Of a DNA stretch of 64,000 nt, positions 1,693-48,589 are shown one piece after another. The stretch is from Labilithrix sp. (GTDB lineage Bacteria; Myxococcota_A; Polyangia; Polyangiales; Polyangiaceae). The DNA lies in the NCBI GenBank assembly GCA_046351255.1, contig JAXLYU010000014.1:123730-187729 (forward strand). The letters run 5' to 3'. Numbering within the stretch: position 1 is the first letter of the stretch; every line of letters starts with the position of its first letter. The notes beneath the pieces were generated by a model that saw nothing but the letters and a program-made list of their open reading frames with translations, had not been told where the DNA came from and made no database searches. The position numbers and the translations under genes were made by a program.

Positions 1693-1720
1693 TCGGGCGT
1701 TTGCCCGTCCGGCGCGTCGT

Positions 1721-4321: not shown

Positions 4322-4477
4322 GCTGCGTACCTGTGCCTACATTGGAACCTTTCACGCGTCCGGCGAAGGAAACACACGTGTTTTATCGGGCGCGGTCGAT
4401 CACCGGTGCATGATCTGGTGGTGCATGGACGCTTCAGCGAAGACGCGCGTCCTCGTTTCTGAAATCGCCGCGCGCGC

Positions 4478-5089: not shown

Positions 5090-5129
5090 GTGCACGGCAC
5101 TGTAGCCGGCCGCCGCACGTCCAGCCACG

Positions 5130-25404: not shown

Positions 25405-26142
25405 TCAACGCAGGTAGAGCCACGTGATGGCTCCGGCGACGGCGAGAAGTCCGACGCCCGCGAAGACGTCGCCGACGATGAGCTTCGTACGCGCGGCATC
25501 GATATCGGACGTCGCGCAGGCACCGGTGGGCGCACAACTCGACTCGAGGTCGTCATGCTCACCGCGACCGAGGGCCCAGAGGACGCTCCCGCCCGCGACG
25601 AGCCCGAGGCCGACCGCGCCGAGCACGATCGCCGGGACGCGACTGCCGCGCTCTGCGGGGGCCGGCTTCGAGGCGGGCAGATCGGGAGCGAGATCGATCG
25701 CAAGCACGCGCGCGCGCTCCCCGTTGCCGACGACGATCCGGCGCGAGACGACGGCGCCGCCGCGTTGGACGCGCACGACATGCTCGCCAGCGTCGAGGGC
25801 GATCGGCCGCCCATCGGCCTTGTCGGCCACGCGTGCGTCGTCGACGGAGATCCGCACATCGACGATGTCGTCGCCGCGTCCGTCGCGCACTCGAACCACG
25901 ATCGTCGGGAGCTCCGTCTCGACCTCCGACAGCCAGCGCGCGCAATCCCGCCGCACGACGGCGGGACACGACTCGCGCGCACACTCGATGAGCGCGTCCC
26001 GCGCGGTACGGAGCTTGTTCTCCTGTCGCGCCCGCTGCGCTTCTTCGGCCCGATCCGCGCAGCGGTCGGCGTTGTCCGCCAGCGCCGGCGTCGCCCGTGC
26101 GAAGAGCACGACGGCGAGCGCGGCAGCAGCGAGACGCGTCAT
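25405..26142 (-). CDS. Secreted two-TM 'PEGA-like' protein, paralogue of the 46338-47270 product (module A)
   Basis: Signal peptide, Cys-bearing helical N-domain (CADRAEEA...ECARESCPAVVRRDCARW), beta-sandwich region (VVRVRDGRGDDIVDVRISVDDARV...HVVRV), Pro linker, TM, short loop with CAPTGAC, second TM; same architecture as the 46338 gene; start overlaps kinase stop. Confidence 0.55.
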   Translation of the reverse strand: MTRLAAAALAVVLFARATPALADNADRCADRAEEAQRARQENKLRTARDALIECARESCPAVVRRDCARWLSEVETELPTIVVRVRDGRGDDIVDVRISVDDARVADKADGRPIALDAGEHVVRVQRGGAVVSRRIVVGNGERARVLAIDLAPDLPASKPAPAERGSRVPAIVLGAVGLGLVAGGSVLWALGRGEHDDLESSCAPTGACATSDIDAARTKLIVGDVFAGVGLLAVAGAITWLYLR

Positions 26143-27638: not shown

Positions 27639-27660
27639 GGTGGATCCCTATGACCCCACC

Positions 27661-28926: not shown

Positions 28927-28952
28927 GACCGAATGCTATCGTGCGACCGGCG

Positions 28953-33068: not shown

Positions 33069-33098
33069 GGCTGCGAATTGCTGATACGCTTCGCAGGG

Positions 33099-34385
33099 AT
33101 GGGGCGTCGCTCGGTCGAGATTGCATCTGCGCTTTTTTTCGGCGCCGCGGTGCTCCTTGCCTGCAACTCCATCATCGGCGTCGAGGACGTCCGCCAGAAG
33201 AGCACCACCTACCGCGACGGCGGCAGCTCGGGCAGCAGCGGCGTCGGTGACGACGACGACGACGACGACATCGTGAACCCGATCGACGGCGGGCCCACCG
33301 AGCCATCGCTGCCTGCGCTCGCGCTCGGCGCGTCCCACTCGTGCGCGCGCATGGTCGACGGCACGGTGCGCTGCTGGGGCGAGTCGCGGCTCGGCCAGCT
33401 CGGCGACGGGATCAACCTCGACGGCGGGCCGGAGCCCCAGCCCTCGCTGAAGCCGAAGTCGGTGCCCGGCATCACGGACGCGGTCGCGATCGGCGCAGGC
33501 TCGAACCACACATGCGTCATCCGCACGGGCGGCAAGCTCTCGTGCTGGGGCTTCAATTACAGCGGTCAGCTCGGGACCGGGAACAAGAACACCGCCTCCG
33601 CGCCGGTCGACGTCCCCAACCTCGGCGAGGTCACGGCCGTCGCCGGTGGCGGCACCGCGACCTGCGTGGCGCTCGCGGACAAGACGGCGTCTTGCTGGGG
33701 CGACAATGATTTCGGGCAGCTCGGCGACGGCACCAAGAACGAGTCGTCGAGCCCGGTGAAGGTGAAGGACCTGACCGGCGTGGTCGCGGTCGCGGTCGGC
33801 TCGCTCCACAGCTGCGCCGTCGTCGACGTCGGCGACGTCTACTGCTGGGGCAACAACGACAAGGGCCAGCTCGGCAACGGGAGCACCACGCAGAGCTTGG
33901 TCCCGCAGAAGGTCGGCGGTCTCACCGACGCCGTGCAGGTGGTCGCGGCGGCGAGCTTCTCGTGCGCGCGGCAGAAGAACGGCCGGGTCGCGTGCTGGGG
34001 CAACAACGACGTCGGCCAGCTCGGCAACGGCGTCGCCTCGCCCACGCCGAACCCGTCGCCCATCCTCGTAGCCTCGCTGACCGACGCGGTGTCGCTCGGC
34101 GCGGGGCTGCAACACGCATGCGCCGTTCGCCAGACGGGTGAGGTGGTGTGCTGGGGCGAAGGTGACTGGGGGCAGCTCGGCTCCGGCCGCGACGCGGGCT
34201 CGCCGATGATCGTCACGGTGGCGTCGCTGAAGGACGCGCGCGCGGTGTGGGGCGGCGCGTTCCGCACCTGCGCGGTTCGTGCCGGCGGCAAGGCGCAGTG
34301 CTGGGGCACGAACAACTACGGCGAGCTCGGGGACGGCAGCAAGAACCGCGCGTACCTGCCGGTGGACATCGTCGACTTCCCGTAG
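33099..34385 (+). CDS. RCC1-repeat (ATS1-like) beta-propeller secreted protein
   Basis: Seven or more repeats of hsCalxxDGxvxCWGxNxxGQLGxG (e.g. SHSCARMVDGTVRCWGESRLGQLGDG); poly-Asp linker near the N-terminus. Confidence 0.75.
   Translation: MGRRSVEIASALFFGAAVLLACNSIIGVEDVRQKSTTYRDGGSSGSSGVGDDDDDDDIVNPIDGGPTEPSLPALALGASHSCARMVDGTVRCWGESRLGQLGDGINLDGGPEPQPSLKPKSVPGITDAVAIGAGSNHTCVIRTGGKLSCWGFNYSGQLGTGNKNTASAPVDVPNLGEVTAVAGGGTATCVALADKTASCWGDNDFGQLGDGTKNESSSPVKVKDLTGVVAVAVGSLHSCAVVDVGDVYCWGNNDKGQLGNGSTTQSLVPQKVGGLTDAVQVVAAASFSCARQKNGRVACWGNNDVGQLGNGVASPTPNPSPILVASLTDAVSLGAGLQHACAVRQTGEVVCWGEGDWGQLGSGRDAGSPMIVTVASLKDARAVWGGAFRTCAVRAGGKAQCWGTNNYGELGDGSKNRAYLPVDIVDFP
33249..33269 (+). repeat. 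(GAC)7 trinucleotide repeat encoding DDDDDDD
   Basis: gacgacgacgacgacgacgac read directly inside the RCC1 gene. Confidence 0.6.
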
Positions 34386-34487: not shown

Positions 34488-36668
34488 ATGGACCCAGCGA
34501 GCACGACGAACCGTTCGAGCGAGCCGCTCTCCTCCGCGCGACCGCTTCGCTCGGTCGGGACGAAGCTCGCCGGCGCCACGCTCGCGATCCTGAGCGCGGT
34601 CGCGATCGTCCTCTTCCTCTACGTCACCCGCGTCGAGCGTGAGCGGGTCCTCGCCGCGAAGGAGACCACCGGCGTCACCGTGACCGGCCTCTTCGCGCAA
34701 GGCGTCCAGGCGCCCGTCGCCTTCGACGATGCGAACGGCGTGTCGGAGCAGATCGGCCTCTTCCTCTCCGCGCCGAGCGTCGTTCACGCGAGCGTCTACG
34801 GTCTCGACGCGAGCGGCGTCTCGCACGCCCTCGGGAGCGGCGGCGGCGAGAGCCCGGCGCCGGAGTTCGACCTCTCCGTCGAGGGCGCGCTCGCCGGCGG
34901 CGTCCAGCGAGGCCGCGACCAGATCCTCGTGCAGGCGCCCATCCTGTCGCCGGCCGGACGACCGGTGGGCTTCACGCGCGTCGCGTTCTCGCTCGCCGAG
35001 GATCACGCCGCGATCTCACGCATCCAGCGCCGCGCGCTCTGGGGCACCGTCGTCTTCGGCGTCGGGCTCGCGGTCCTCCTCATCGGCCTGAGCCGCCTGC
35101 TCATCGTCCGGCGCCTCGGCGAGCTCGCGTTCGCCGCGCGTCGCCTCCAGCGCGGCGAGCACGTGGAGGTGCAGGTCCGTGGCGACGACGAGGTCGGCTC
35201 GCTCGCCGGCGCGTTCCGCGCGATGTCGTGCGCGATCGAGACCCGCGAGCTCGAGATCAAGCGTCGCAATCGAGATCTCCGCCGCGTCCTCGACAACGTC
35301 GACGCCGGCTTCCTCACCGTCGACCGCGAAGGCGTCATGGCCTCCGAGCGCTCGCGGATCCTCGACGCGTGGTTCGGCCCCGCCGACGGCACCAGCTTCT
35401 TCGACTGGGTGGAGCGCTTCGCGCCCGTCGCCGCGCACACGCTCCGCAACGGCTGGCGCGACATCGCCGACGACTTCATGCCGGTCGAGGTGATCCTCGA
35501 TCAGCTCCCCACGCGCGTGGAGGTCGGCGACCGCACGTTCGCGTTCACCTACGCGCAGATCCTCGAGGGCGAGGCGCTCGCGGGTGTGGTCGTGTCGATC
35601 ACCGACGTGACGGCCGAGGTGCGCCGCACGGCGGCCGAGCGCGCGCAGCGGGAGGCGATGTCCATCTTCCGTCGCCAGCTCGACGACCGCGCCGGCTTCG
35701 CCCGCTTCATCGCCGACGGCGAGCGCATCCTCGAGGGGCTTCGCTCCGGCGAGACGGATCGCACGACGCGGCTCCGGCACCTCCACACCCTCAAGGGCAA
35801 CGCCGCGATCTACGAGCTCGAGAGCATCGCCTCGGCGTGCCATGCGCTCGAGGACCGTCTCGCGGACGAGGGGGGCAACGAGCTCGCGCCCGAGCTCTTC
35901 GCGAAGCTCGAGGGGGCGTGGTCGGACCTCTGCGCGCTCTTCGTCGAGCTCGGCGGCAGCCGCGCCGCGCACCTCGAGCTCACCCTCGCCGAGCATCACG
36001 CGCTCCTCGAAGCGATCCGCGCCGGCGTCTCCACGTCCGAGCTCGAGCGTCGCGTGGCGTCGCTCGCACGCGAGCCGGCGCGCGCGAGCCTGGCGCGGGC
36101 CGCGCAGCAGACGCGCGCCATCGCCCGGCGCCTCGGCAAGCATCACCTTCGCGTGACCATCGCCGTCGCGCCGCCCGAGCTCCGGCTCGACGCCGACACC
36201 TGGAGCCCGATCTGGCTCGCCGTCCCGCACCTCCTCCGCAACGCGCTCGATCACGGGATCGAGTCGGCGGACGTCCGCGAGCGCGCGGGTAAGCCGTCCG
36301 GCGGCGAGATTCGCCTCGCGCTCGAGCAGTCGACCGACGGCCGCTCGATCGCGCTCGTGGTGGCGGACGACGGCGCGGGCATCGACTGGCAAAAGCTCCG
36401 GCGCGTGGCCGAGAAGCGAGGGCTCCCATGCACGAGCGAGAGCGATCTCGTGGCGGCGCTGTTCGCAGACGAGGTCTCGACGCGTGACGAGGTCACGGAG
36501 ACCTCCGGCCGCGGCGTCGGTACGAACGCGGTGCGCGTCGCGGTGGAGGCGGCCGGCGGACGCGTGCGCGTCACGAGCGAGCGCGGGCGGGGCACGACGT
36601 TCACCCTCGAGGTGCCGATCGGGGCCCACGAGCGCTCGAGCGCGAGCGAGGCGTGTCGTGCGGCGTAG
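34488..36668 (+). CDS. Transmembrane sensor kinase: periplasmic domain-HAMP-Hpt-dimerisation-CheA-type HATPase (no CheW-like domain)
   Basis: Two TM helices flanking an approximately 150 aa periplasmic region; HAMP; Hpt motif HTLKGNAAIYELE; CheA N-box HLLRNALDHGIE, G1 DDGAGID, G2 GRGVGT; ends at TAG overlapped by the next gene start. Confidence 0.75.
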   Translation: MDPASTTNRSSEPLSSARPLRSVGTKLAGATLAILSAVAIVLFLYVTRVERERVLAAKETTGVTVTGLFAQGVQAPVAFDDANGVSEQIGLFLSAPSVVHASVYGLDASGVSHALGSGGGESPAPEFDLSVEGALAGGVQRGRDQILVQAPILSPAGRPVGFTRVAFSLAEDHAAISRIQRRALWGTVVFGVGLAVLLIGLSRLLIVRRLGELAFAARRLQRGEHVEVQVRGDDEVGSLAGAFRAMSCAIETRELEIKRRNRDLRRVLDNVDAGFLTVDREGVMASERSRILDAWFGPADGTSFFDWVERFAPVAAHTLRNGWRDIADDFMPVEVILDQLPTRVEVGDRTFAFTYAQILEGEALAGVVVSITDVTAEVRRTAAERAQREAMSIFRRQLDDRAGFARFIADGERILEGLRSGETDRTTRLRHLHTLKGNAAIYELESIASACHALEDRLADEGGNELAPELFAKLEGAWSDLCALFVELGGSRAAHLELTLAEHHALLEAIRAGVSTSELERRVASLAREPARASLARAAQQTRAIARRLGKHHLRVTIAVAPPELRLDADTWSPIWLAVPHLLRNALDHGIESADVRERAGKPSGGEIRLALEQSTDGRSIALVVADDGAGIDWQKLRRVAEKRGLPCTSESDLVAALFADEVSTRDEVTETSGRGVGTNAVRVAVEAAGGRVRVTSERGRGTTFTLEVPIGAHERSSASEACRAA

Positions 36669-38853
36669 CGGCTTGGCCCTCGTCCTCGCCGCGCTCACCA
36701 CGGCGCCGAGCGCGTTCGCGGGCGATGACGTCACGGAGCTCGAGGCGCTCCTCAGCGAGAACGTCGTCTCCGGAGCATCGAAGGAAGCGGAGACGTCATC
36801 CGACGCGCCTGCGATGACGACGACGCTCACCGCAGCCGACATCCGGCGGTACGGGCTCCGCAGCATCGACGAGGCGATCGATTTTCTCGGCATGGGAATG
36901 GTGACGCAGAACCCGCTCCACTCCGTCGAGATGGGCGGACGCGGCGTGCTGATCACGGCCGACTTCGGAAATCACGTGCTGCTCGTGGTCGACGGTCACG
37001 TGATGAACGAGCCGTGGAACATGACCGCTTACTTCGAGCAAGGCGCGGGCATCCCCATGGAGCTCATCGACCACATCGAGCTGATCCTCGGCCCGGGCTC
37101 GGTGCTCTACGGCGGGAGCGCCATGCTCGGCGTGGTGAACGTGGTCACGAAGCGCGCCTCCTCCTTCAAGGGCGCGCACGTGGTGCTCGAGGGCTCGGTC
37201 TCGCCGCAGCAGGGCGGTGGCGGACGCTTCTCGAGCTTCGCGCCGGGCGATCTCGGCGGCGCCGGTCGCGTCGGCGTCGGCGGCGGACACACGACCAGCT
37301 TCCTCGGCAAGCCGCTCGAGTGGATCGGTCAGGTCGAGATCTACGGTCAGAACGGCCCCTCGTTCGAGTGGAGCCCGCAGGTCGTGACCAACGAGGACGG
37401 CACGCCGAAGAACTTCGGGTCGCGGGCCGCTCCGGGCGTGTGGGGCGGTCGCACCACACGCAGCTACGACACGACCGTGCCCGCGCTCTACACGCGTCTC
37501 GACTGGAACGGCTTCGCGCTCATGTTCCGGACCGCGAGCTATGCGCGCGCGACGCCGTACACGAACAACTTCAACCAGCTGCGTGGCGACTTCGACGATC
37601 CGCGCAGCGGCGAGCGGGACAGCTGGCTGTCGGTCGACCTCCAGCACCGCGCCCGCTTCGGTCGCTGGTCCACGCTCGCGCACGGCTACTTCGACAACTA
37701 CCGCTACGGCCAGTCGATGTACGAGGCCGACGGGAGCCAGTGCATCTTCCCGGTGGCTGGCACGTGCTTGACGAAGGTCCGCGGGCGCTCGAGCTGGGGC
37801 GGAGCGGAGGCGCAGGCCACCTACGACTGGCTCGGCGACAGCACGCTGACGACGATGCTCGGCGTCGATGGGCGCGTGCGCTACATCTCCAACTCGACGA
37901 CCGCGATCGCGCTCGACACCGGGCAGGTCGTGGGCATCGTCGGCGACCGGAGCGCGACGGAGCTCGCGTACGCGGTGTATGGCCAGCAGCGCTGGAGCCC
38001 GTTTTCTCGGCTCCACCTGAACGCCGGCGCGCGCTTCGACCACGATCCACGCGGCGGTGATCGGCTCTCCCCACGCGCCGCGGTCTCCTTCACGCCGTGG
38101 ACCGGCGGCACCCTCAAGGCGATCTACTCCGAGGCGTTCCGGGCGCCGTCGTTCTACGAGAAGTACTACGCGGACGGCATCGTCCGTCCCGCGACCTCGC
38201 TCGGACCCGAGGTCGTGCGCAGCGCGGAGGCCAACTTCGAGCAGCGCCTCGGTCGCCACCGGCTCGTCATGGGCGTCTTCCGGAGCTGGTGGTCGGGCAT
38301 GATCGCGCTCCGCACCGTCGACGACAGCACGCTCGAGTACGCCAACCTCTCGCGGATCGACAACTGGGGCTACAACGCCCGCGTCGACGGGACGATGGGC
38401 GCGTTCTCGTACGGGCTCTCGATGACGGGGGCGCACACACGCCGTGACGACGGCGACGGCGATGGCGAGCATCCGCTCCCGGTGGCGCCGCAGGTGTTCG
38501 GCAATGCGCGCGCCGCCTACGACCTTCCCGGGGCGTTGCCAACCGTCGCGATCGCCACCACCTTCGTCGGCTCGCGTCCGGCCGATCGTGCGTTCGACGG
38601 CGGCTTCCCCACGACGCCCTACGCGCCGGCGCAGGCGCGCGTCCGTCTCACGCTCTCGGACGCGGTCCCGGCCGTCCCCGGCCTCTCCTGGCGCCTCGCG
38701 GGCGAGATCGTGACGAAGGGCGAGAGCGCCTACGTCGCGGGTCCCACCCAGAGCGTCGACCCCGCGACCGACAATCCTCGGGCCGCGCAGCTCGCGCCGG
38801 TGAACCGAGCGATGGTGCTCGGGACGCTTCGCTACGACTTCGGCGGGCCATGA
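36658..38853 (+). CDS. TonB-dependent-receptor-like outer-membrane beta-barrel protein
   Basis: GTG start giving signal peptide (M)RRSGLALVLAALTTAPSAFA; plug-domain motifs (LITADFGNHVLLVVDGHVMNEP...IELILGPGSVLYGGSAMLGVVNVVTK); long beta-rich barrel region with aromatic-rich C-terminus. Confidence 0.65.
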   Translation: MRRSGLALVLAALTTAPSAFAGDDVTELEALLSENVVSGASKEAETSSDAPAMTTTLTAADIRRYGLRSIDEAIDFLGMGMVTQNPLHSVEMGGRGVLITADFGNHVLLVVDGHVMNEPWNMTAYFEQGAGIPMELIDHIELILGPGSVLYGGSAMLGVVNVVTKRASSFKGAHVVLEGSVSPQQGGGGRFSSFAPGDLGGAGRVGVGGGHTTSFLGKPLEWIGQVEIYGQNGPSFEWSPQVVTNEDGTPKNFGSRAAPGVWGGRTTRSYDTTVPALYTRLDWNGFALMFRTASYARATPYTNNFNQLRGDFDDPRSGERDSWLSVDLQHRARFGRWSTLAHGYFDNYRYGQSMYEADGSQCIFPVAGTCLTKVRGRSSWGGAEAQATYDWLGDSTLTTMLGVDGRVRYISNSTTAIALDTGQVVGIVGDRSATELAYAVYGQQRWSPFSRLHLNAGARFDHDPRGGDRLSPRAAVSFTPWTGGTLKAIYSEAFRAPSFYEKYYADGIVRPATSLGPEVVRSAEANFEQRLGRHRLVMGVFRSWWSGMIALRTVDDSTLEYANLSRIDNWGYNARVDGTMGAFSYGLSMTGAHTRRDDGDGDGEHPLPVAPQVFGNARAAYDLPGALPTVAIATTFVGSRPADRAFDGGFPTTPYAPAQARVRLTLSDAVPAVPGLSWRLAGEIVTKGESAYVAGPTQSVDPATDNPRAAQLAPVNRAMVLGTLRYDFGGP

Positions 38854-39434
38854 AGCTCACGCGCGCCGAGATCCTGCAGGCGTCGCTGGCGCTGGCGCTG
38901 GGCGGTCTGGTCGGCTGGCCTCGCCGTGGCTTCGCCGCCTCCGCGCCCACCGCCCTCCAGGCGCAGCTCATCGGACGGCTCGCCGCGTTCGATCGGAGCT
39001 TCGCTGCGCGCGCCGGCGCGGTGGCGAAGGTGTCGTGTCATCACAAGACGAAGGACGCAGAGTCTGCGTCCGTCACGAGCGCGGTCGCGAAGGCCACCGC
39101 CAGCCTCGGCGACATCGGCGGCCTGCGCCCGGAGGTCACGGTGTCGGAGCTCGGGGACGCGGCGAAGCTCGCCGCGCGGTGCCCGGCGGAGAGGATCGCG
39201 ATCCTCTACTTCGGCCCCGGGACCGAGACCGACATGGGCGCCATGGCGCAGGCCCTCTCGGGGGTCGACGTGCTCAGCATCGGCGGCTCGGGAGCTCATG
39301 CGGAGCGCGGCGCCGTCGTCGGCTTCGACGTCGAGGAAGGACGCCCGCGCATCGTCGTGAACCTCCGATCGGCGCGGGCACAGAAGGTATCGCTGCGCGC
39401 CGAGCTCCTCAAGCTTGCTCGTGTGATCGAATGA
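38850..39434 (+). CDS. YfiR-like (DUF4154) periplasmic protein
   Basis: Signal peptide; C-terminal VLSIGGSGAHAERGAVVGFDVEEGRPRIVVNLRSARAQKVSLRAELLKLARVI matches the YfiR/DUF4154 pattern (vLtIGesd...GgiI.F......vrFeiNl.aa...gl.iss.LL.lA); ATGA overlap with the upstream stop. Confidence 0.55.
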   Translation: MKLTRAEILQASLALALGGLVGWPRRGFAASAPTALQAQLIGRLAAFDRSFAARAGAVAKVSCHHKTKDAESASVTSAVAKATASLGDIGGLRPEVTVSELGDAAKLAARCPAERIAILYFGPGTETDMGAMAQALSGVDVLSIGGSGAHAERGAVVGFDVEEGRPRIVVNLRSARAQKVSLRAELLKLARVIE

Positions 39435-39483
39435 CTTAACGGCGGCGCCTCTGCCGCCGTTCCACTCCAGAGGACGAGGACGA

Positions 39484-40011
39484 ATGGACAGCATGGAACG
39501 CGAAGTAGTCGTGTCGACGCTCGAGAGCTCGGTCGTCGAGTTCTTTCGAGCGTATGGCATCACGTGCGACAAGACCGAGTCGTGCGCCGCTGCGCCGGGA
39601 GCCGAGATGGGATCCATCGTCGGCTTCCGGGGGAAGGGGCTCCGTGGGGGTCTCGCGTTCGTCGCCCCGACCGAGCTCGTGGCCCGGCTCCTGCCGGTGC
39701 CGAAGCGGCCCGCGCGCGGCGAGCTGCAGCTCCGTGACTGGAGCGCGGAGATCGCGAATCAGCTCGTGGGCCGACTGAAGAACAAGCTCTCGGCTCACTC
39801 GATCGACTTCGAGATCGGCACGCCGGTCTGCTTTCGCGGCTCGAGCATCCGCCTGTCCTTCTTGCCCGAAGCCGACGGCGTGACCCTCGACTTCAACGCC
39901 GGCAGCGATCCCGTGCGCGTCTATCTCGACTGCGCCCTCGCCGCCGATGGCTCCGCAACCTCCGCCCCTGCGCCACGCATCGTCACCGAGGGCGAAGTCG
40001 TCCTCTTCTGA
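39484..40011 (+). CDS. CheX-like chemotaxis phosphatase-fold protein
   Basis: About 175 aa; EMGSIVGFRGKGLRGGLAFVAPTELVARLL resembles the CheX/CheC-fold core; strong GAGGACGAGGA RBS; placed between sensor genes and cheY. Confidence 0.45.
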   Translation: MDSMEREVVVSTLESSVVEFFRAYGITCDKTESCAAAPGAEMGSIVGFRGKGLRGGLAFVAPTELVARLLPVPKRPARGELQLRDWSAEIANQLVGRLKNKLSAHSIDFEIGTPVCFRGSSIRLSFLPEADGVTLDFNAGSDPVRVYLDCALAADGSATSAPAPRIVTEGEVVLF

Positions 40012-40027
40012 GAACCGCGAGTGAACC

Positions 40028-40405
40028 ATGTCCAAGACCATCATCGTAATCGACGACTCCGAGACCATCCGTGACCAGGTGAAGCTGGTCCTCGACGAGG
40101 CTGGCTATCAGGTCATCGAAGCGGAGGACGGCGCGGAAGGCGCGGCGGTCATCCGAGCCAATCCGGGCGCGGCGCTCGCGATCTGTGACGTGAACATGCC
40201 CCGCATGAGCGGGATCGACATGCTCGAGCACCTGAAGTCGCTCGGGCTGCCGAACATCCCGCCCGTCCTCATGCTCACGACCGAGGGCCGGCCCGATCTC
40301 ATCGATCGCGCGCGCTCGGCGGGGGCCAAGGGGTGGATCGTGAAGCCCTTCAAGCCCAACATGCTGCTCGCGACGGTGAAGAAGATCGCGAGCGTAGCGG
40401 CATGA
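40028..40405 (+). CDS. cheY: Single-domain response regulator (CheY-like)
   Basis: IIVIDDSETIR (DD pair), ICDVNMPRMSGID (phospho-Asp), LMLTTEG (Thr), IVKPF (Lys); 125 aa. Confidence 0.85.
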   Translation: MSKTIIVIDDSETIRDQVKLVLDEAGYQVIEAEDGAEGAAVIRANPGAALAICDVNMPRMSGIDMLEHLKSLGLPNIPPVLMLTTEGRPDLIDRARSAGAKGWIVKPFKPNMLLATVKKIASVAA

Positions 40406-42300
40406 ACGCCAGCGCCACCCCGGTGTCCCGGCGGTTTGGTGCGCCGCCACGCCGGGAGTCGATCGCCTTCGAGGCCGTCGTCGCGGCCCCGCGCGTCTTG
40501 CTCGTCGATGACGACGACGCGGCGCGCACGGAGGCGGCCGCCGCTCTCCGGAGCATCGGCTGCACCGTGTTCGAGGCCAGCAACGGTCTCGACGGGCTCA
40601 AGACCTTCGAGACCGTGCGCCCCCACATCGCGTTCCTCGAGGTCATGACGCCGTTCGTCGACGGCTTCTCCACCTGCCGCGCGATGCGTGACCTCCAGGG
40701 TGGAGGTGACGTCGCGATCGTGATGATGACCGACGAGGACGACGTCGAGTCGCTCCGCTTCGGCTACGAGGCCGGCGCGACCGACTTCATCATCAAGCCG
40801 ATCAACGCGATGGTGCTCCAGCACCGCGTCCGCTTCATGAACCGCGCCATCGCGTCCGCGCAGCAGAACCGCGCGCACGAGCGCAAGATCGCGCACCTCG
40901 CGTATCACGACGCGCTCACCGGGCTCCCCAATCGACGCACGCTCTCCGAGTACATGGAGAAGCTCGTCGCGGAGACGCCGCGCAAGGGCGCCGTCTTCGT
41001 GCTCGACCTCGACGGCTTCAAGCGCGTGAACGACACGCTCGGCCACTCCGCAGGCGACGAGCTCATCTGCGAGGTCGGGCGTCGCATGCTCGCCGCGTTC
41101 GCCATCGAGCCGACGAACTGGAGGCGCGGCTCCCGGCCGGACCGCCAGCTCCTCGTGCGCCTTGGCGGTGACGAGTTCGTCTTCGTCGATCCCAACGTCG
41201 ACAGCGCGATCGAGGCGTCGATGCTCGCGGAGCGCTTGCTCTCCGCGGTCGGGACGGTCTTCGAGCTCCACGGGCACGAGGTGCTCGTCACGGCGAGCAT
41301 CGGGATCGCGCTCGTCGGCGAGGTCGAGGGCGGCGTGGACGAGCTCCTGCAGAGCGCCGACACCGCGATGTACGACGCGAAGGCGCACGACCGCAACAAC
41401 GCGCGCTTCTACTCGCGGAAGCTCTTCGAGCAGGCGCGGAAGAAGGTCGACACGGAGAGCGCCCTTCGCCAGGCGATCGCGGGCAACCAGCTCGTCCTCT
41501 ACTACCAGCCGAAGGTCGCGCTCGCGACCGACGAGGTGGTCGGCGTGGAGGCGCTCCTTCGCTGGAACCATCCGACGCGCGGCATCGTCTTCCCCGGCGA
41601 GTTCATCGGGACGGCGGAGGAGACCGGGCTCATCGTGCCCATCGGCATCTGGGCGCTCGGCGAGGTGTGTCGTCAGGCCAAGCGCTGGAGCGAGCGCGAG
41701 GATCTCCGCGGCATCCGCATCGCGGTCAACGTCTCGGCGCGCCAGTTCCGTAGCCCGACCTTCCTCGCGCAGGTCGAGCACGAGATCAGGAGCTCGGGCG
41801 TCGATCCGCGGCTCATCGAGATGGAGATCACCGAGGGCATCCTCCTCGAGGACACGAAGGGCGTTCGCGTCATCCTCGACGGCCTCAAGGCGCTCGGGCT
41901 GCACATCGCGCTCGACGACTTCGGCACGGGCTACTCCGCGCTCGGCTACCTCCGCCAGTTCCCGTTCGACTGCCTCAAGATCGATCGCTCGTTCATCACC
42001 GACCTCCTCGTCGACGAAGGCTGCGCCGCGATCACGAGTGCGGTGGTGGCCCTCGCGAATCGGCTCCGCCTGAACGTGGTGGCCGAGGGCGTGGAAGAGG
42101 CGGGACAGGCGGAGCAGCTCCGGCAGCTCGGCTGCGACGAGGCTCAGGGCTATCTCTACAGCCCGGCGCTTCCGGCCGATCAGCTCGCGGCTTGGGCCTC
42201 GGGCCGCGTACGCAAGCTCGACGCGGGCGAAGGCCTCCGTCGCGTGTTCTTCCCCCGCGGAAGCGCGGTCCCCTCTCTGCGCGTTCACTCGCTGCTCTGA
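40402..42300 (+). CDS. REC-GGDEF-EAL protein (diguanylate cyclase/phosphodiesterase) with Glu at the receiver phospho-acceptor position
   Basis: Receiver: LLVDDDD, FLEVMTPFVDG (Glu where phospho-Asp is expected), MMTDE, IIKP; GGDEF: RLGGDEFVFV; EAL: EALLRW, DDFGTGYS, EGVE; ATGA overlap with cheY stop. Confidence 0.85.
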   Translation: MNASATPVSRRFGAPPRRESIAFEAVVAAPRVLLVDDDDAARTEAAAALRSIGCTVFEASNGLDGLKTFETVRPHIAFLEVMTPFVDGFSTCRAMRDLQGGGDVAIVMMTDEDDVESLRFGYEAGATDFIIKPINAMVLQHRVRFMNRAIASAQQNRAHERKIAHLAYHDALTGLPNRRTLSEYMEKLVAETPRKGAVFVLDLDGFKRVNDTLGHSAGDELICEVGRRMLAAFAIEPTNWRRGSRPDRQLLVRLGGDEFVFVDPNVDSAIEASMLAERLLSAVGTVFELHGHEVLVTASIGIALVGEVEGGVDELLQSADTAMYDAKAHDRNNARFYSRKLFEQARKKVDTESALRQAIAGNQLVLYYQPKVALATDEVVGVEALLRWNHPTRGIVFPGEFIGTAEETGLIVPIGIWALGEVCRQAKRWSEREDLRGIRIAVNVSARQFRSPTFLAQVEHEIRSSGVDPRLIEMEITEGILLEDTKGVRVILDGLKALGLHIALDDFGTGYSALGYLRQFPFDCLKIDRSFITDLLVDEGCAAITSAVVALANRLRLNVVAEGVEEAGQAEQLRQLGCDEAQGYLYSPALPADQLAAWASGRVRKLDAGEGLRRVFFPRGSAVPSLRVHSLL

Positions 42301-42341
42301 GCGACCGGCGGGCAGGGCCCGGACCTTGCTAAGGGCCGGGT

Positions 42342-43175
42342 ATGGGGCTCCTCTCGCTCGAAGCGATCGTCGCGGACGTGATGACGCACGACGTCTTCAC
42401 GCTCTCGCCGTCCCACAGCCTTCCGCTCGCGGACACGATGATGACGCTCCGCCACATCCGGCACATCCCGGTGGTGGATGACGCGCATCGGCTCGTCGGC
42501 CTCGTCACCCACCGCGATCTGATGAAGGCCCAGCTGAGCGCCCTCTCCCCGCTCTCGAAGGACGAGCGGAGCACCCTGGAGCTGGCGATCCCGATCTCGA
42601 AGATCATGCAGAAGGAGGTGTGGACGATCGCACCGTCTGCGCGAGCTGCGCAGGCGGCGCAACTTCTGCGTGACCATCGGTTCGGATGCCTGCCCGTGAC
42701 GGAGCACGGACGGCTCGTCGGGATCGTCTCGGAGTCCGACCTCCTCCAGCTGCTCGCGCAGCCGGGGCCCTCGGTGCCGGCGCCGCAGCACTGGCCGATC
42801 AAGCAGTTCATGACCGGCGCGCCCGTGACGATCACGCTCGACACGTCCCTCGCGGAGGCGCGGCTCGCGTTCGAGCAGCACCACATCCATCATCTGCCCG
42901 TCCTCTCGGAGGGGCGCGCCATCGGCATCGTCCACGAGCGCGATATCCGCGTCGCGGAGGCGATCTTCGGCGCGAGCCAGAACACGCGCGCGGTGCACGT
43001 CGCGCAGCTCCTCGGGGACATTCACTCCGACCACGCTCGGCCGGACGAGGCGCTCGCCGTCGTCCTCGAGCGGATGATTCGCGACCGCGTCGACGCGGTG
43101 GTGGTGGTGGAGAACGACGTGCTCTGCGGGATCTTCACTCTGGTCGACGCGTGCCGCGTGCTCACCGTGCGCTGA
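42342..43175 (+). CDS. CBS-domain tandem (two CBS pairs) protein
   Basis: Four CBS-like units (VMTHDVFTLSPSHSL...HIPVVDD, VWTIAPSA...CLPVTEHGRLVGIVSESDL, FMTGAPVTI...HLPVLSEGRAIGIVHERDI, ...VVVVENDVLCGIFTLVD). Confidence 0.8.
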   Translation: MGLLSLEAIVADVMTHDVFTLSPSHSLPLADTMMTLRHIRHIPVVDDAHRLVGLVTHRDLMKAQLSALSPLSKDERSTLELAIPISKIMQKEVWTIAPSARAAQAAQLLRDHRFGCLPVTEHGRLVGIVSESDLLQLLAQPGPSVPAPQHWPIKQFMTGAPVTITLDTSLAEARLAFEQHHIHHLPVLSEGRAIGIVHERDIRVAEAIFGASQNTRAVHVAQLLGDIHSDHARPDEALAVVLERMIRDRVDAVVVVENDVLCGIFTLVDACRVLTVR

Positions 43176-43188
43176 TGTTCCACGCCGC

Positions 43189-43262
43189 GAGACAGGTGTT
43201 CCACGCGACGGAACACCTCTCGCGCGCCGGCCTGCATTTCCCGGGGAAATGAGGGGTTTTGG
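43189..43262 (+). terminator. Probable tandem-hairpin intrinsic terminator ending the 34.5-43.2 kb operon
   Basis: GAGACAGGTGTTCC-acgcgac-GGAACACCTCTCTC (13/14 bp stem), then CATTTCCC-g-GGGAAATG followed by GGGGTTTTGG; begins 14 nt after the CBS gene stop. Confidence 0.4.
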
Positions 43263-43332
43263 CGGTGGCGAAGCGCTTGCTCTTTCTGGCGGAGACGCGA
43301 AGGTCGCGCGTCTCTTTCGGAAGGAATCGAAG

Positions 43333-44874
43333 ATGAAGATGGGTGTCGTTGGTCTCGTGAGCAGCGTGGCGGCGGTGATGATCGCGGCGACGGTCGGCTG
43401 TGTGACGCAGAGCACGAAGGACGGAGAGAGCAGCTCGGGGGGAACGAACGACGCGGGAGGTGGCGACGGCGGCAGCGGTGTCGAGGATGGGAGCGCGACC
43501 GGTGACGGCGGCGCGACCGAGCAGGGGCCCACGCGCTACGCCTGCCCGATCGACAAGCCGCAGAAGGTGTACGGCTACGCGCTGAACGCGAAGTCGAGCA
43601 TCGACGCGCCCGAGACCTGGACGCCCGACAACGTCTATCTCGTCTTCGGGCCGCTCCACATCCAGAAGCCGCTGACGATCCAGGCCGGCACCGTCGTGTG
43701 CTTCGACTACGGCCCGCCCGGCGCGAACGGCTCCGCCGAGCCCCCGCCGGGCGAGATGCTCCTCGAGGAGGGCGGCGCCATCGACGCGCAAGGTACGCCG
43801 ACCTCGCACGTCGTCTTCACTGCGAAGTCGGACGGGAGGGGTCCCGAGCAGCTCTACTGGAAGGGCCTCACCGCGTTCTCCGGCTGGACCGGCTTCAAGC
43901 TCGTTTACTCGGACATCTACAACGGCGGTCTCTCCGCTGGTGGCGCGCCGCTCGAGGTCATGGCCGACAACGGGCTCGCGCCGCTCGTCGACTGGCAGAA
44001 CGTGAAGGTCTACTCGTCGCAGCGCGTCGGCATCAAGATGCTCGCGGAGAAGGGCTTCACCCCGGAGACGAAGCTCACCTTCGTGAACTTCGCGGACGAG
44101 TACGTCACCAAGTACGCGAGCGACGCGAACTACGAGGACTACTACGACCACGGCTATCCCGTGCTTCGTCTGAGCCACTACGGCGCCTCGTCGGTGAAGC
44201 CGGGCATGTTCGACATCGGCGATCCGGCGAAGGTCCCGCCCGCGACGCGCTACGTGCAGCTCGATCACGCCGAAGGCGCGATCGTCTCGAAGGACTACCA
44301 CCTGCACAAGCTCCCGCCGGGCCTCGCCTGGCGCAACGTGCAGAACGAGCTGCTCGACGCGACGCTCACCATCGATCCAGGCACCACGATCGCCGTCGCC
44401 AACGGCGGCACCTGGTTCATCGGCGACAAGGGCGGCTGCAGCGGCGCGGGCTCGCTCGTCGCGGTCGGCACTGCGGCGGAGCCGATCACGTTCACGAACG
44501 ACATCCCGTGGCAGGGGCCGGCGGAGAAGTCGCCGACGAAGAGCCCCGGCATCACCATCAACTCGTGCGCGTTCGCGAGCACGAAGCTCGACTACGTCGT
44601 GTTCGACGGGCTCGGCGCGCAGTCGGCGGTCTCCGTGCACTGCAAGGGCGAGAGCCCGGCGTTCGCGGGCGAGGTGAACTTCCTCTACTCGGGCGACGGC
44701 GTCGACCGCGAGGGCCCGCCGATCACGCACTCCACCTTCAAGAGCTCGGCGGGGTACGGCATCCTCCGCGTGGACGGCTCGCACATCACGACCGACTACA
44801 CGAAGGCCGAATTCGGCAACACGTTCGAAGGGTTCACGGACCCGGCGAAGCCCGCGCAGCCGACCTGCAACTGA
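43333..44874 (+). CDS. Hypothetical secreted lipoprotein (beta-helix-like)
   Basis: MKMGVVGLVSSVAAVMIAATVGCVTQ lipobox; Gly/Asp/Ser linker; 513 aa beta-rich body; AAGGAA RBS. Confidence 0.55.
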   Translation: MKMGVVGLVSSVAAVMIAATVGCVTQSTKDGESSSGGTNDAGGGDGGSGVEDGSATGDGGATEQGPTRYACPIDKPQKVYGYALNAKSSIDAPETWTPDNVYLVFGPLHIQKPLTIQAGTVVCFDYGPPGANGSAEPPPGEMLLEEGGAIDAQGTPTSHVVFTAKSDGRGPEQLYWKGLTAFSGWTGFKLVYSDIYNGGLSAGGAPLEVMADNGLAPLVDWQNVKVYSSQRVGIKMLAEKGFTPETKLTFVNFADEYVTKYASDANYEDYYDHGYPVLRLSHYGASSVKPGMFDIGDPAKVPPATRYVQLDHAEGAIVSKDYHLHKLPPGLAWRNVQNELLDATLTIDPGTTIAVANGGTWFIGDKGGCSGAGSLVAVGTAAEPITFTNDIPWQGPAEKSPTKSPGITINSCAFASTKLDYVVFDGLGAQSAVSVHCKGESPAFAGEVNFLYSGDGVDREGPPITHSTFKSSAGYGILRVDGSHITTDYTKAEFGNTFEGFTDPAKPAQPTCN

Positions 44875-44898: not shown

Positions 44899-46338
44899 TT
44901 GTGCGGTACGCTGCCATCGATGGCGGATGTCCGCGCAGCCTCCCCCGGGATCCCCGAGACGGGTCAGATCGTCTCGGGGAAATTCCGGATCGAAGAGCCG
45001 CTCGGCCGCGGCGGTCTCGGCGTGGTCGTGGCGGCGACGCACCTTCAGCTCGGACAGCGCGTCGCGATCAAGTTCCTCGACGCGCGCGTGCTCGCGGCGG
45101 TCGACGGGGTCGCGCGATTCCTTCGTGAGGCGCGCTCCGCCGCCACCATCGAGAGCGAGCACTGCGTTCGCATCCTCGATTTCGGCACCGCGGAGGACGG
45201 CGCGCCCTACATCGTCATGGAGTGCCTGCGTGGTCACGACCTCGCGACCGAGCTTCGCGAGCACGGTGCGCTCGAGGTCGAGCGCGCGGTCGACTACGTC
45301 CTCCAGGCCTGCGACGCGGTCGCGGAGGCCCATGCGCACGGGATCATCCATCGTGACCTCAAGCCCGCCAACCTGTTCCTCGCCCGCCGCGAGGCTCGCG
45401 GCTCATTGAAGGAAGGCGCCCTGCTCGTGAAGGTGCTCGATTTCGGCGTCGCGAAGGTCCTCGACGAGGGTGACGGTCGCATGGGCCTCACGGGCGAGTC
45501 CGCGGTGATCGGCACGAGCTACTACATGGCGCCCGAGCAGGTCCGCGACTCGAGCCGCGTCGACGCTCGCACCGACGTCTGGGCGCTCGGCGTGATCCTC
45601 TTCGAGCTCCTCACGGGGGAGCGTCCCTTCGACGGGCCGACCGCCTCCGCCGTCACCGCCGCGATCGTCGCGGATCCGCCACGGCTCCTCGACGACGTTC
45701 GCCCCGACGTGCCGCCTGCCATCCGCGCCGTCATCGCGAAGTGCCTCGCGAAGGATCCGGCGCGCCGCTGGCCCGACGTGCGCGCCTTCGCGCAAGCGCT
45801 CGAAGACGCGCTCGGCGGCTCCGCGCGCCTCCGCCTCGTGCGACCCTGGTCCGAGACCGAGCGCGGCTCGGCGGGGCGGCTCGTGGTCTCCACTGCACCC
45901 GTGTCGAGCCCCGAGGCCCTCGCCGCGACGGAGCTCGCGTCGAGCGAGTCGGGCCAGCAGGTGAGCGAGCCGGTGAGCGAGCGCGCGGACGCGAGCCCGC
46001 GACGGTCGCGCGCGCCGATCGCGATCGCGGCCGTCCTCGGCGTCGGGCTCGCCGTCGGATGGGCGGTGCGCGCGCTTGCGCCCTCGACACCGCCGGAGCC
46101 GGTGCGCGCGACGGTCGATGCGGCCGCGAGCACGGTGGCGAGCGTGCTGCCGAGCGTGACCGCCTCCGTCGAGCCGCCGCCTCCGGTCACGGTGGCGATC
46201 ACGTCGGCCGCGCCGCCGGCGAGCTCCGCGCGCGGTATGGTGCACGCGCCGCGCATCGGCACCAAGCCAATCGCGCCGGCGCCACCGCGCGCCACCGATC
46301 CGAAGGGCATCGATGATCCGAACCTGACGAACCGCTGA
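44899..46338 (+). CDS. Membrane-anchored Ser/Thr protein kinase (module B)
   Basis: LGRGGLGVVV (Gly loop), VAIKFL, HRDLKPANLFL, DFGVAK, YMAPE; C-terminal TM IAIAAVLGVGLAVGWAV plus Pro-rich tail; an alternative Met start lies 21 nt downstream. Confidence 0.85.
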   Translation: MCGTLPSMADVRAASPGIPETGQIVSGKFRIEEPLGRGGLGVVVAATHLQLGQRVAIKFLDARVLAAVDGVARFLREARSAATIESEHCVRILDFGTAEDGAPYIVMECLRGHDLATELREHGALEVERAVDYVLQACDAVAEAHAHGIIHRDLKPANLFLARREARGSLKEGALLVKVLDFGVAKVLDEGDGRMGLTGESAVIGTSYYMAPEQVRDSSRVDARTDVWALGVILFELLTGERPFDGPTASAVTAAIVADPPRLLDDVRPDVPPAIRAVIAKCLAKDPARRWPDVRAFAQALEDALGGSARLRLVRPWSETERGSAGRLVVSTAPVSSPEALAATELASSESGQQVSEPVSERADASPRRSRAPIAIAAVLGVGLAVGWAVRALAPSTPPEPVRATVDAAASTVASVLPSVTASVEPPPPVTVAITSAAPPASSARGMVHAPRIGTKPIAPAPPRATDPKGIDDPNLTNR

Positions 46339-47270
46339 TGAACCCCCGATTTTTACCTGTTCTCGTGACGTTCGCGTCTGCGCTCGTCGCCGTGAGCGCG
46401 CCGGCGCTCGCGGACGACGCTGCCACGCGCGCCGCGGAGGTGCTCTTCACCGAGGGGCGCGACCTCATGCGCGCCGAGAAGTACGACGAGGCCTGTCCGA
46501 AGCTCGCGCGGAGCCACGAGCTCGCGCCTGCGGTGGGCACGCTCCTGAACCTCGGCCTCTGCTACGAGAAGAGCGGTCGGACCGCGAGCGCGTGGCTTCG
46601 CTACAAGGAGGCGGCCTCCATCGCGGCGCAGAAGCACGACGCGCGCGAGACCTACGCGCGTGACCGCGTCTCCTCCCTCGAGATCGAGCTCGCACGTCTC
46701 ACGGTCGACGTCGCGCCGGACGTGGCCAAGGCCAGCCCGCACGTGGTGCTCGACGGCGCGGACCTGCCCAACGCGTCGTGGGGCGTGGCGATCCCGATCG
46801 ATCCGGGCGATCACGTCGTCGTCGCGATCGCGAGCGAGGACCGGACGGTCACGAAGCGCACGCACATCGACGCGAAGACGAAGGTGACGCTGACGATCGA
46901 CGCGTTCGAGACGGCCGGACGCCCCGGTCCTGGCCCCGGTCCGACGGCGCCCGTCACGCGTCCGCTGGTCCTCGCCGAGCCTCCGCCCGCGCCGCACGAG
47001 CGCTCCTCCGTCCAGCGTCCGCTCTCCTACGCCGTGCTCGGGCTCGGCGGCGCGGCGCTCCTGGCCGGTGGCGTCGTCGCGACGATCGCGAAGGTCCGCT
47101 ACGACGGCGTGGAAGACGAGTGCGGCGGCAATCGCTGCACGCCCTCGGCGCGAGACACGCGAAACGGCGCCTTCGATCAGGCCGACGTCGCGAGCGTGCT
47201 GGGGATCTCCGGCCTCGTCGTGCTCGCGGCGGGCAGCGTGCTCTGGCTCACCTCGCGCGGGGAGCGATGA
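46338..47270 (+). CDS. Secreted two-TM 'PEGA-like' protein (module B)
   Basis: Signal [25 protein letters not shown]; TPR-like Cys-bearing helical region ([10 protein letters not shown]...[10 protein letters not shown]); beta-sandwich (HVVLDGADL...[15 protein letters not shown]); PGPGPGP linker; TM; CGGNRC loop; TM; TGATG overlap upstream and ATGA downstream. Confidence 0.55.
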
Positions 47271-48589
47271 GCACCGAGGCGATGGGCAGCGCGCGCCGCG
47301 CGCTCGCCGTGGACGTCCTCCGTCTCGTCGTGATGGACGGCCCCGACGCGGGCGAGCGCTTCGAGTCGACGCAGGGGCGGCTCGTCGTGGGCACGCATGC
47401 CTCGGCGGACGTGGTGCTCTCGGACCCCGCCGTCTCGCGCTTCCATTTCGAGCTCGTCACCTCCTCGACCGGCATCCTCCTTCGCGACCTCGGCAGCACG
47501 AACGGTACGTGCGTCGACTCGGTCCCCGTGATCGCTGCGCCGCTCCGGCCAGGCGCGGTCCTCGAGGTCGGCCGCACGCGCCTTCGCCTCGAGGCCGCGG
47601 CCGAGAAGGCGACCGTCGAGCTGCCCGCGCGTCAGTCGTTCGGCGTCGCGGTCGGCCGCTCCGTCGCCATGGCTCGCACCTTCGCGCTCCTCGAGCGCGC
47701 GGCCGCCTCGGACGCGACGGTGCTCCTCGAGGGCGAGACGGGCACCGGAAAAGAAGCGGCGGCGGAGTCCGTCCACATCGAGAGCGCGCGGCGCGATCAG
47801 CCGTTCATCGTCGTCGACTGCGCGTCGATCCCGAAGGACCTGCTCGAGTCCGAGCTCTTCGGTCACGAGCGCGGCGCGTTCACGGGCGCGGTCGCCGCGC
47901 GCGCGGGCGCCTTCGAGGCCGCGAACGGCGGCACCCTCTTCCTCGACGAGATCGGAGAGCTCTCGTCCGAGCTCCAGCCGAAGCTCCTGCGCGTGCTCGA
48001 GCGCCGCGAGGTGAAGCGCGTGGGCGCGAATCGATACGAGAAGGTCGACGTGCGGCTCATCGCGGCCACGCACCGCAACCTCCGCGAGGAGGTGAACAAC
48101 GGTCGCTTCCGCGCCGATCTCTACTACCGCCTCGCGGTCGTGCAGGTGCGGTTGCCGCCGCTCCGCGAGCGTCTCGACGACCTCGCCCTCCTCGTGGAGA
48201 GGCTCCTCGCGCAGCTCGGCGCGAGCACACGCCCCGAGGCGATGATGGTCCGCACGCCCGAGTTCTACGCCGAGCTCGCGCGCCATTCCTGGCCCGGCAA
48301 CGTGCGCGAGCTACGGAACTACGTCGAGCGTTGCCTCGCGATGCGCGAGACGATGCCGCTCGATCCGGTGGGCGAAGCGGGGACCGAGCGCGATGCCACG
48401 TTCGATCCGCGCTCCCTCGCGGGCCTGCCGCTCAAGGAGGCCCGCGATCGCTGGGTCGACCTCTTCGAGCGCGCCTACGTGGCCGAGCTCCTCAAGGCGC
48501 ACGACGACAACGTGGCCGCCGCGGCGCGTGCCGCGGGCGTCGCGCGCAACCACTTCTACCGCCTGCTCTGGCGGCACGGCTTTCGCTGA
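47267..48589 (+). CDS. FHA-domain sigma54-dependent transcriptional activator (module B), intact GAFTGA
   Basis: FHA ([26 protein letters not shown]...STNGT); GETGTGKE; [15 protein letters not shown]; RADLYYRL; C-terminal [19 protein letters not shown]. Confidence 0.85.

Follow-up and report, generated by a model that had tools for sequence, protein, structure and literature searches.

An HKIII-type kinase operon of Labilithrix sp. with a TonB-type receptor and a YfiR-like protein as proposed envelope input to CheY and c-di-GMP signalling

Organisation of the locus

The window analysed here is a stretch of 64,000 nucleotides (nt) from Labilithrix sp. (contig JAXLYU010000014.1, positions 123,730 to 187,729), with a G+C content of ~70%. 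At 34488-43262 it carries seven open reading frames (ORFs), all on the + strand, which encode a membrane-bound sensor kinase of the HKIII type (class III histidine kinase), an outer-membrane receptor of the TonB-dependent type, a YfiR-like periplasmic protein, a CheX-like protein, a CheY-like response regulator, an enzyme of cyclic diguanylate (c-di-GMP) metabolism and a protein made of CBS domains. The main finding is that the receptor and the YfiR-like protein accompany kinases of this family in a manner that depends on the sensor domain of the kinase, which supports a functional tie between the three proteins. The features of the locus are as follows:

34488..36668, + strand: HKIII-type sensor kinase, 726 amino acids (Pfam HAMP, Hpt, HATPase_c)
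36658..38853, + strand: TonB-dependent-receptor-type outer-membrane protein, 731 amino acids, GTG start, plug and 22-strand-type barrel
36736..36783, + strand: N-terminal motif of the mature receptor, ELEALLSENVVSGASK, conserved in orthologues
38850..39434, + strand: YfiR-like (DUF4154) periplasmic protein, 194 amino acids, Sec-type signal peptide (Pfam DUF4154)
39438..39461, + strand: GC-rich stem-loop with a 9-bp stem in the gap between the DUF4154 gene and cheX (fold -21.3 kcal/mol, z -2.2)
39484..40011, + strand: CheX-like protein, 175 amino acids, with E89-x-x-N92 (Pfam CheX, E 1e-8)
40028..40405, + strand: single-domain CheY-like response regulator, 125 amino acids (Pfam REC, E 6e-24)
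40402..42300, + strand: REC-GGDEF-EAL protein, 632 amino acids (Pfam), with an ATGA overlap with cheY
42342..43175, + strand: stand-alone protein of four CBS domains, 277 amino acids (Pfam CBS, four matches)
~43186..43264, + strand: two hairpins in succession, then GGGGUUUU, 3' of the CBS stop codon (fold -44.8 kcal/mol, z -2.5)

The initial annotation of this DNA had described a translationally coupled operon of seven genes, and its gene calls have been corroborated. The seven ORFs lie at the coordinates first claimed, with a G+C content at third codon positions (GC3) of 0.83-0.93, and the claimed Pfam domains are found in all seven products, each above its gathering score; this includes the two identifications proposed for checking, the plug and barrel of the 36658-38853 product and the DUF4154 domain of the 38850-39434 product. 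The coupling itself applies to three of the six junctions. Between the kinase stop and the GTG start at 36658 there is an overlap of 11 nt, which is identical in the close relatives L003 and L087 (related loci are cited by such numbers), and ATGA overlaps join the receptor and DUF4154 genes at 38850 and cheY and the REC-GGDEF-EAL gene at 40402, all as originally described. The other three junctions have gaps of 49 nt (DUF4154 to cheX), 16 nt (cheX to cheY) and 41 nt (REC-GGDEF-EAL to CBS).

The stem-loop that follows the DUF4154 stop codon has counterparts at the equivalent site in L003:11728-11745 and L087:9611-9629, in which the inner bases of the stem are different. Its role may be that of a leaky terminator or of an RNA-stability element, giving the sensor and output genes different expression levels, and its conservation in close relatives, at the border between the sensor trio and the output genes, qualifies the picture of a single coupled relay. 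The double hairpin that had been taken to close the operon does fold and is a plausible candidate for the operon terminator, but a consensus terminator scan makes no call at 43186-43264, because the U-run is only 4 nt long. A simple promoter scan returned no sigma-70 promoter.

The sensor kinase

The kinase can be divided into a membrane and sensor part and a cytoplasmic part, with the following segments (residue numbers):

~23-50: first transmembrane segment
~55-168: periplasmic CHASE8-like alpha/beta domain
170-204: second transmembrane segment
205-250: HAMP domain
273-373: PAS-like domain
375-487: Hpt bundle
500-548: helical linker
~541-711: CheA-type P4 ATPase

The Hpt domain (Pfam E 5e-9) contains His433 in the motif HTLKGN (nt 35784-35786), which is invariant across 71 homologues and is the predicted phosphorylation site. 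The CheA-type N, G1 and G2 boxes are likewise invariant in the 71 homologues, the N box reading HxxRNxxDHGIE. Residues 515-711 match CheA chains in the PDB with E 4e-25 and the NCBIfam CheA models with E 1e-36, and Foldseek aligns the ATPase part of an AlphaFold2 model (predicted local distance difference test, pLDDT, 85.6) with CheA P4 at a TM-score of ~0.8. Of the CheA(P3/P4) assignment first made for this protein, the P4 ATPase therefore stands, as does the statement that a CheW-like P5 domain is missing, since the protein stops 15 residues past P4; Pfam detects neither an H-kinase_dim nor a CheW domain in the kinase. The P3 part of the assignment falls away: residues 500-548 are modelled as three short helices and not as the long P3 hairpin, and the CheA alignments begin at about residue 340 of Thermotoga maritima CheA and 313 of E. 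coli CheA, positions that we take to be the C-terminal end of P3 or the P3-P4 linker. The canonical CheAs retrieved in the architecture search carry PF02895 and PF01584, and about 80 clusters of the protein database share the architecture of the window kinase.

This architecture matches that reported for the HKIII class (Adebali et al. 2017, J Bacteriol 199:e00218-17), whose members reportedly combine sensory domains with Hpt and a CheA-type ATPase, are devoid of P3 and P5, and work with CheX and a single-domain response regulator outside any chemotaxis array. Because of this match the architecture is not new in itself, and the view that a membrane-anchored Hpt-CheA-ATPase protein is unusual is not supported, all the more so as the sensor module alone is widespread: an exhaustive profile search with it yielded 171 clusters at 50% identity, with E up to 1e-30. 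Ten of these clusters were sampled, and they comprised HKIII-type kinases together with five PP2C/SpoIIE phosphatases and two HisKA-HATPase-REC-REC-Hpt hybrid kinases; the presence of the sensor on such different outputs indicates that it is a portable module.

As regards the periplasmic domain, the CHASE8 family (PF17152) is matched by 8 of 11 members of the kinase family, with a best E of 7.7e-6. The same family is matched with E 1e-33 by DgcN/YfiN of E. coli, whose gene sits between yfiR (DUF4154) and yfiB (OmpA-like), and one relative of the window kinase also matches the DgcN/YfiN N-terminus, with E 2e-13. Moreover, NCBIfam contains three linked models, namely NF053590 (TOL_0244 family TonB-dependent receptor), NF053591 (TOL_0243 family YfiR-like periplasmic protein) and NF053592 (sensor histidine kinase, YfiR-like protein-associated), so the association of receptor, YfiR-like protein and kinase has already been catalogued; literature searches retrieved no paper on such a system. 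NF053592 aligns end to end over the sensor and HAMP region, with E 5e-8 for the window kinase, of which it is the eighth-ranked NCBIfam match, and with E down to 1.5e-23 for its relatives. The best NCBIfam matches of the receptor and of the DUF4154 protein are NF053590 and NF053591, respectively.

The receptor and the YfiR-like protein

The receptor shows the features of a TonB-dependent receptor, as judged from its sequence: a plug (Pfam E 2e-10), a barrel (TonB_dep_Rec_b-barrel, E 1.5e-26), a TonB-box-like ENVVSGAS and a C-terminal aromatic strand. Its signal peptide has the cleavage site AFA|GDD, and Pfam detects no STN signalling domain. The motif DLxALLxE(N/H)VVSGASK, which we take to be TonB-box-like by comparison with known TonB boxes, is kept in 21 of 22 receptor orthologues, distant ones included, the 21 being those with the N-terminus present. 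The C-terminal strand LxYDF is a typical end of an outer-membrane barrel, to which the window copy adds GGP where the next gene overlaps.

The product of this next gene matches the DUF4154 family with E 2e-14 and 54 bits, against a gathering score of 25, and the family profile matches the solved YfiR structures with E 4e-4. With the NCBIfam YfiR equivalog the protein reaches 18 bits, the cut-off being 85, and by these scores it is classed as a homologue of YfiR and not as an orthologue. All results of a search for homologues of the DUF4154 protein lay inside Polyangia, and true TOL_0243 members were not among them.

Relatives and co-occurrence

A scan of species-representative genomes for the kinase family gave 177 loci, nearly all of them in metagenome-assembled genomes (MAGs) of Polyangia/Myxococcota. 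Among these loci the highest identity to the window kinase does not exceed 44%, and several genomes have multiple paralogues. The order kinase, receptor, DUF4154, CheX, REC and REC-GGDEF-EAL recurs in L004, where the kinase is 41% identical, and in L008, from a Labilithrix MAG, while the close relatives L003 and L087 agree with it in gene order as far as their contigs extend.

The neighbourhoods of 88 kinases of the family were surveyed by phmmer, with a distance of 10 kb and Fisher's exact test. The receptor and DUF4154 pair was found beside 18 of the 39 kinases with the window-type sensor and beside none of the 49 with a different sensor (p 2.6e-8). The combination of CheX and a CheY-type REC protein, present near 32 of the 88 kinases, was spread over both groups (13/39 with the window-type sensor and 19/49 with others; p 0.66). 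A CheY-type neighbour of at least 90 bits lies beside 41/88 kinases, and c-di-GMP enzymes are recurring neighbours of the family. The orientation and spacing of the trio vary, the genes being divergent in L001 and L002 and interrupted by inserted genes in L014 and L015. This pattern of co-occurrence points to two layers, a core of HKIII kinase, CheX and CheY, and an accessory layer of receptor and DUF4154 protein that is tied to one type of sensor. The link of the YfiR-like protein and the receptor to the kinase, first proposed from gene order in the window, is in this way upheld by the synteny survey.

Several related loci differ from the window in their gene content. In a sister clade (L006, L009, L011, L014, L015 and L032; for example L015:6783-12574), inserted genes split the kinase from the receptor, the order being CheX, kinase, alanine racemase (Alr), a protein of ~1200 amino acids resembling a non-ribosomal peptide synthetase with adenylation, carrier and reductase parts (A-T-R), a 298-amino-acid protein with no assigned role (4/6 loci), receptor, DUF4154 and CheY. 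Such an insertion suggests that in this clade the receptor recognises a small molecule of the organism's own making. In L005 (8276-9999) a more distant member of the kinase family (34% identity, different sensor) is preceded by proteins of 234 and 334 amino acids with no Pfam match, which come after the REC and CheX genes; these two may serve another sensor type as alternative partners, periplasmic or accessory. Finally, kinase-CheY modules, two of the three with CheX, are found in two Planctomycetota MAGs (L038 and L056) and in a MAG labelled Candidatus Kuenenia stuttgartiensis (L048), where they reflect either horizontal transfer or a binning error.

The output genes

The CheX-like protein matches the CheC-like and CheX chains 3h2d, 3iic and 6vpw in the PDB. 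Its ExxN motif is present in 38 of 39 aligned CheX-like proteins, Ser replacing Asn in the remaining one, and the protein is predicted to be a phosphatase of phosphorylated CheY (CheY~P). In the CheY-like regulator the catalytic residues D9/D10, D54, T and K are intact, as they are in all 43 aligned proteins of the CheY family, and this regulator is the predicted phosphoryl acceptor of the kinase.

The REC-GGDEF-EAL protein has intact GGDEF and EAL signature motifs, and its translation contains no RxxD I-site. Its receiver differs from the adjacent CheY at the acceptor position, which is Glu80 in all four orthologues (window, L003, L004 and L008), in the context FLEVMTP, as against Asp54 in ICDVNMP. 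A glutamate at the acceptor site of a receiver cannot take a phosphoryl group from a phosphohistidine, so direct phosphotransfer to this protein, an assay for which had been proposed with the first reading of the locus, is unlikely. The c-di-GMP enzyme of the receptor-linked clade is therefore probably not a phosphoryl acceptor, and a response to CheY~P or to the kinase through contact between the proteins is more likely. The REC-GGDEF proteins that neighbour paralogous modules retain the acceptor Asp.

The CBS gene, although listed at first as the seventh member of the operon, lies outside the conserved module. Whereas the order of the other six genes is found again in two related loci, a CBS homologue was found in none of 85, an exact-sequence look-up of the protein gave no match, and in L004 the genes past REC-GGDEF-EAL, at the position of the CBS gene, are on the opposite strand.

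Proposed mechanism and alternative explanations

From the domain content, the conserved residues and the sensor-specific neighbourhood, we infer a set of interactions and a direction of regulation. With a probability of about 0.5, the operon encodes an HKIII-type two-component pathway with an envelope input related to YfiR/YfiN, in which the TonB-type receptor would be the outer-membrane partner. YfiR is a periplasmic repressor that is sequestered by the outer-membrane protein YfiB (PMC4655355). By analogy with the action of YfiR on YfiN, the YfiR-like protein of the window would bind the CHASE8-like periplasmic domain of the kinase and set its activity, while the receptor, through ligand occupancy and/or its TonB-box-like N-terminus, would capture or release the YfiR-like protein or else deliver a ligand, filling the role of YfiB in YfiBNR. 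The kinase would dimerise through the stalk formed by its transmembrane segments, HAMP and PAS, in place of P3, and would autophosphorylate on His433 of the Hpt domain; the phosphoryl group would pass to Asp54 of CheY and would then be removed by CheX. The REC(Glu80)-GGDEF-EAL protein, itself unphosphorylated, would be the likely effector, controlled by binding CheY~P or the kinase, with a change in c-di-GMP turnover as the output. The CBS protein would be a lineage-specific addition. The original proposal of a relay from the envelope to CheY and c-di-GMP is in this form partly supported.

Several results weigh against the pathway so drawn. Twenty-one of the 39 kinases with the window-type sensor have no receptor and DUF4154 pair within 10 kb, some of these loci being incomplete and several having one partner, and this REC-GGDEF-EAL neighbour occurs with only 3 of the 88 kinases of the family; any coupling of CheY~P to the GGDEF-EAL protein is purely conjectural. 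No TonB or ExbBD gene is found among the window genes. The match of the window kinase to CHASE8 is weak (E 0.031), and hhalign of its N-terminal profile against one E. coli DgcN sequence gave a non-significant E of 0.13, so that the CHASE8 assignment rests on the Pfam and NCBIfam profile matches. Furthermore, all three proteins score far below the curated NCBIfam cut-offs, the receptor with 84.7 bits against 645, the DUF4154 protein with 40.9 against 125 and the kinase with 32.8 against 194, and the kinases of the relatives are likewise under the cut-off of 194; the window system is accordingly a distant relative of the catalogued trio.

Other explanations differ in how much of this evidence they can accommodate. 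That the receptor and the DUF4154 protein form an uptake unit which merely lies beside an unrelated kinase operon deserves hardly any credence: receptor genes are abundant in these genomes and some kinases with the same sensor lack the pair within 10 kb, but start and stop codons overlap at both ends of the receptor gene, the association is specific to the sensor type, the trio has been retained through inversions and insertions, and NCBIfam independently curates the same trio. That the six-gene order recurs in L008 and in L004, whose kinase is 41% identical, argues in itself against a chance juxtaposition. It is also very improbable that the kinase phosphorylates both CheY and the receiver of the GGDEF-EAL protein, and so switches c-di-GMP synthesis or breakdown directly. 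The position of the REC-GGDEF-EAL gene directly after cheY, with an ATGA overlap, would fit such a relay, and so would the paralogous loci in which a REC-GGDEF gene with an intact Asp adjoins a CheX-CheY-kinase module; the glutamate shared by the window, L003, L004 and L008, where CheY has an aspartate, speaks against it here, whereas the conserved Asp of the paralogous proteins makes direct phosphotransfer to a diguanylate cyclase plausible elsewhere in the kinase family. An output to motility, in which CheY~P acts on a type IV pilus or gliding machinery and the GGDEF-EAL and CBS genes are passengers, is unlikely, if less so than direct phosphotransfer. In its favour, type IV pilus-based motility is linked to the HKIII class by the title of the HKIII paper and by a paraphrase of it in another paper, the CheY consists of a receiver alone and lacks an output domain, and most related loci carry CheX and CheY with no c-di-GMP gene. 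Against this, the window ORFs that were scanned include no pilus, gliding, methyl-accepting chemotaxis protein (MCP) or CheW genes, conservation at 41% kinase identity extends to the gene order and to the ATGA overlap of cheY with the REC-GGDEF-EAL gene, and REC-GGDEF genes recur next to paralogous modules.

The alternative that comes nearest to the proposed pathway concerns the input. The receptor may be a TonB-powered importer of a small molecule that the DUF4154 protein presents to the kinase, with no sequestration by the receptor, which we regard as possible though doubtful. A full plug and barrel, a conserved TonB-box-like motif and the lack of a signalling extension are what such an importer would have; the Alr and A-T-reductase insertion of the sister clade hints at a self-made ligand, and small-molecule binding to YfiR has been reported. 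The biosynthetic cassette is, however, absent from the window operon, and the present data are compatible with import and with sequestration alike. Returning to the pathway with a YfiR-type input, a more general form of it can be put forward only tentatively: the receptor and the YfiR-like protein would be a portable input from the outer to the inner membrane, separate from surface signalling of the FecA/FecR type. The ligand or TonB state of the receptor would govern capture or release of the YfiR-like protein, an inhibitor that gates the CHASE8-like sensor, and this sensor would be combined with interchangeable outputs, the ligand in the sister clade being perhaps a metabolite derived from D-alanine.

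Flanking genes

The genes around the operon have some features of their own. Directly past the candidate operon terminator, at 43249-44874 (+ strand), lies a gene for a 541-amino-acid protein with no Pfam match, whose N-terminus is predicted to be of the signal or lipoprotein type and which has a linker rich in Gly, Ser and Asp. On either side of the operon, at 26139-28935 (- strand) and 44899-48589 (+ strand), a Ser/Thr protein kinase lies next to or near an FHA-domain sigma-54 activator. The pairs are 26139-27647 with 27661-28935 and 44899-46338 with 46778-48589, the second having a TPR protein in between, and their repetition has the look of a paralogous regulatory module. Finally, a block of phosphoesterase, PQQ beta-propeller and GST genes is found directly 5' of the kinase in L003 (440-6697), with an RCC1 gene before the block, while in the window the same block is at 1-5200, ~29 kb from the kinase, whose immediate neighbour is the RCC1 gene (33078-34385). 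The displacement suggests an insertion or rearrangement of ~28 kb.

Significance and comparison with known systems

Control of the YfiR type has so far been understood for one circuit, that of YfiB, YfiR and the cyclase YfiN. The present data point to a re-use of this pair, YfiR-like protein and CHASE8-type sensor, with another outer-membrane partner (a TonB-type receptor) and other cytoplasmic machinery (a CheA-derived HKIII kinase together with CheY and CheX). The pairing of YfiR with CHASE8 (in YfiBNR) and the trio (in the NCBIfam catalogue) were already known, and the kinase class has apparently been published; the novelty lies in the placing of an HKIII core behind a YfiR-like and TonB-receptor input, followed by a c-di-GMP enzyme with a conserved Asp-to-Glu pseudo-receiver, as well as in the statistics that link the receptor pair with one type of sensor. 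Should the receptor indeed gate the YfiR-like protein, surface signalling by TonB receptors would have a second mechanism beside the sigma/anti-sigma route, and HKIII kinases would gain a concrete input and a c-di-GMP output. The receiver of the GGDEF-EAL protein, moreover, offers a clear example of a pseudo-receiver beside a genuine CheY.

With the HKIII class as reportedly defined, the window system shares a sensory input joined to Hpt and a CheA-type ATPase, the lack of P3 and P5, and the presence of CheX and a single-domain regulator with no array. It differs in its input, a CHASE8-like domain with genetic ties to a receptor of the TonB type and to a YfiR-like protein, and in the neighbouring effector, which is a c-di-GMP enzyme rather than a soluble chemoreceptor or a pilus gene. 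HKIII genes are reportedly associated, frequently but not obligatorily, with soluble chemoreceptor or type IV pilus genes; none of either kind was found among the window ORFs scanned with Pfam. A classical Che pathway was considered and rejected, as the kinase has no P5 and no scanned window ORF encodes CheW or an MCP.

The likeness to YfiBNR (TpbB) and HmsCDE consists of a DUF4154 protein, an inner-membrane protein with a CHASE8-type domain and HAMP, an outer-membrane partner and a c-di-GMP readout. The outer-membrane partner in the window is, however, a plug-and-barrel TonB-type receptor and not the OmpA-like lipoprotein YfiB, and the sensor acts through Hpt and a CheA-type ATPase, CheY and CheX and not through a GGDEF domain of its own. 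An orthologue of YfiBNR was rejected on these grounds, two of the three components being different, and the original judgement that the operon corresponds neither to a classical Che nor to a Yfi system is maintained. The trio of the NCBIfam models comes closer in arrangement, with consecutive overlapping genes for receptor, YfiR-like protein and kinase in the window and the same association in 18 related loci, although the window proteins remain far under the curated cut-offs.

The last comparison is with transducers of the FecA/FpvA type, in which an outer-membrane TonB-type receptor relays an extracellular signal and which are characterised by an STN domain and by sigma/anti-sigma genes. A transducer of this type was rejected for the window, where the receptor has no STN domain and the flanking ORFs scanned have no sigma or anti-sigma domain. 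The common element is a TonB-type receptor proposed to relay a signal from outside to a cytoplasmic regulator; the periplasmic relay in the window would instead be a YfiR-like protein acting on a kinase.

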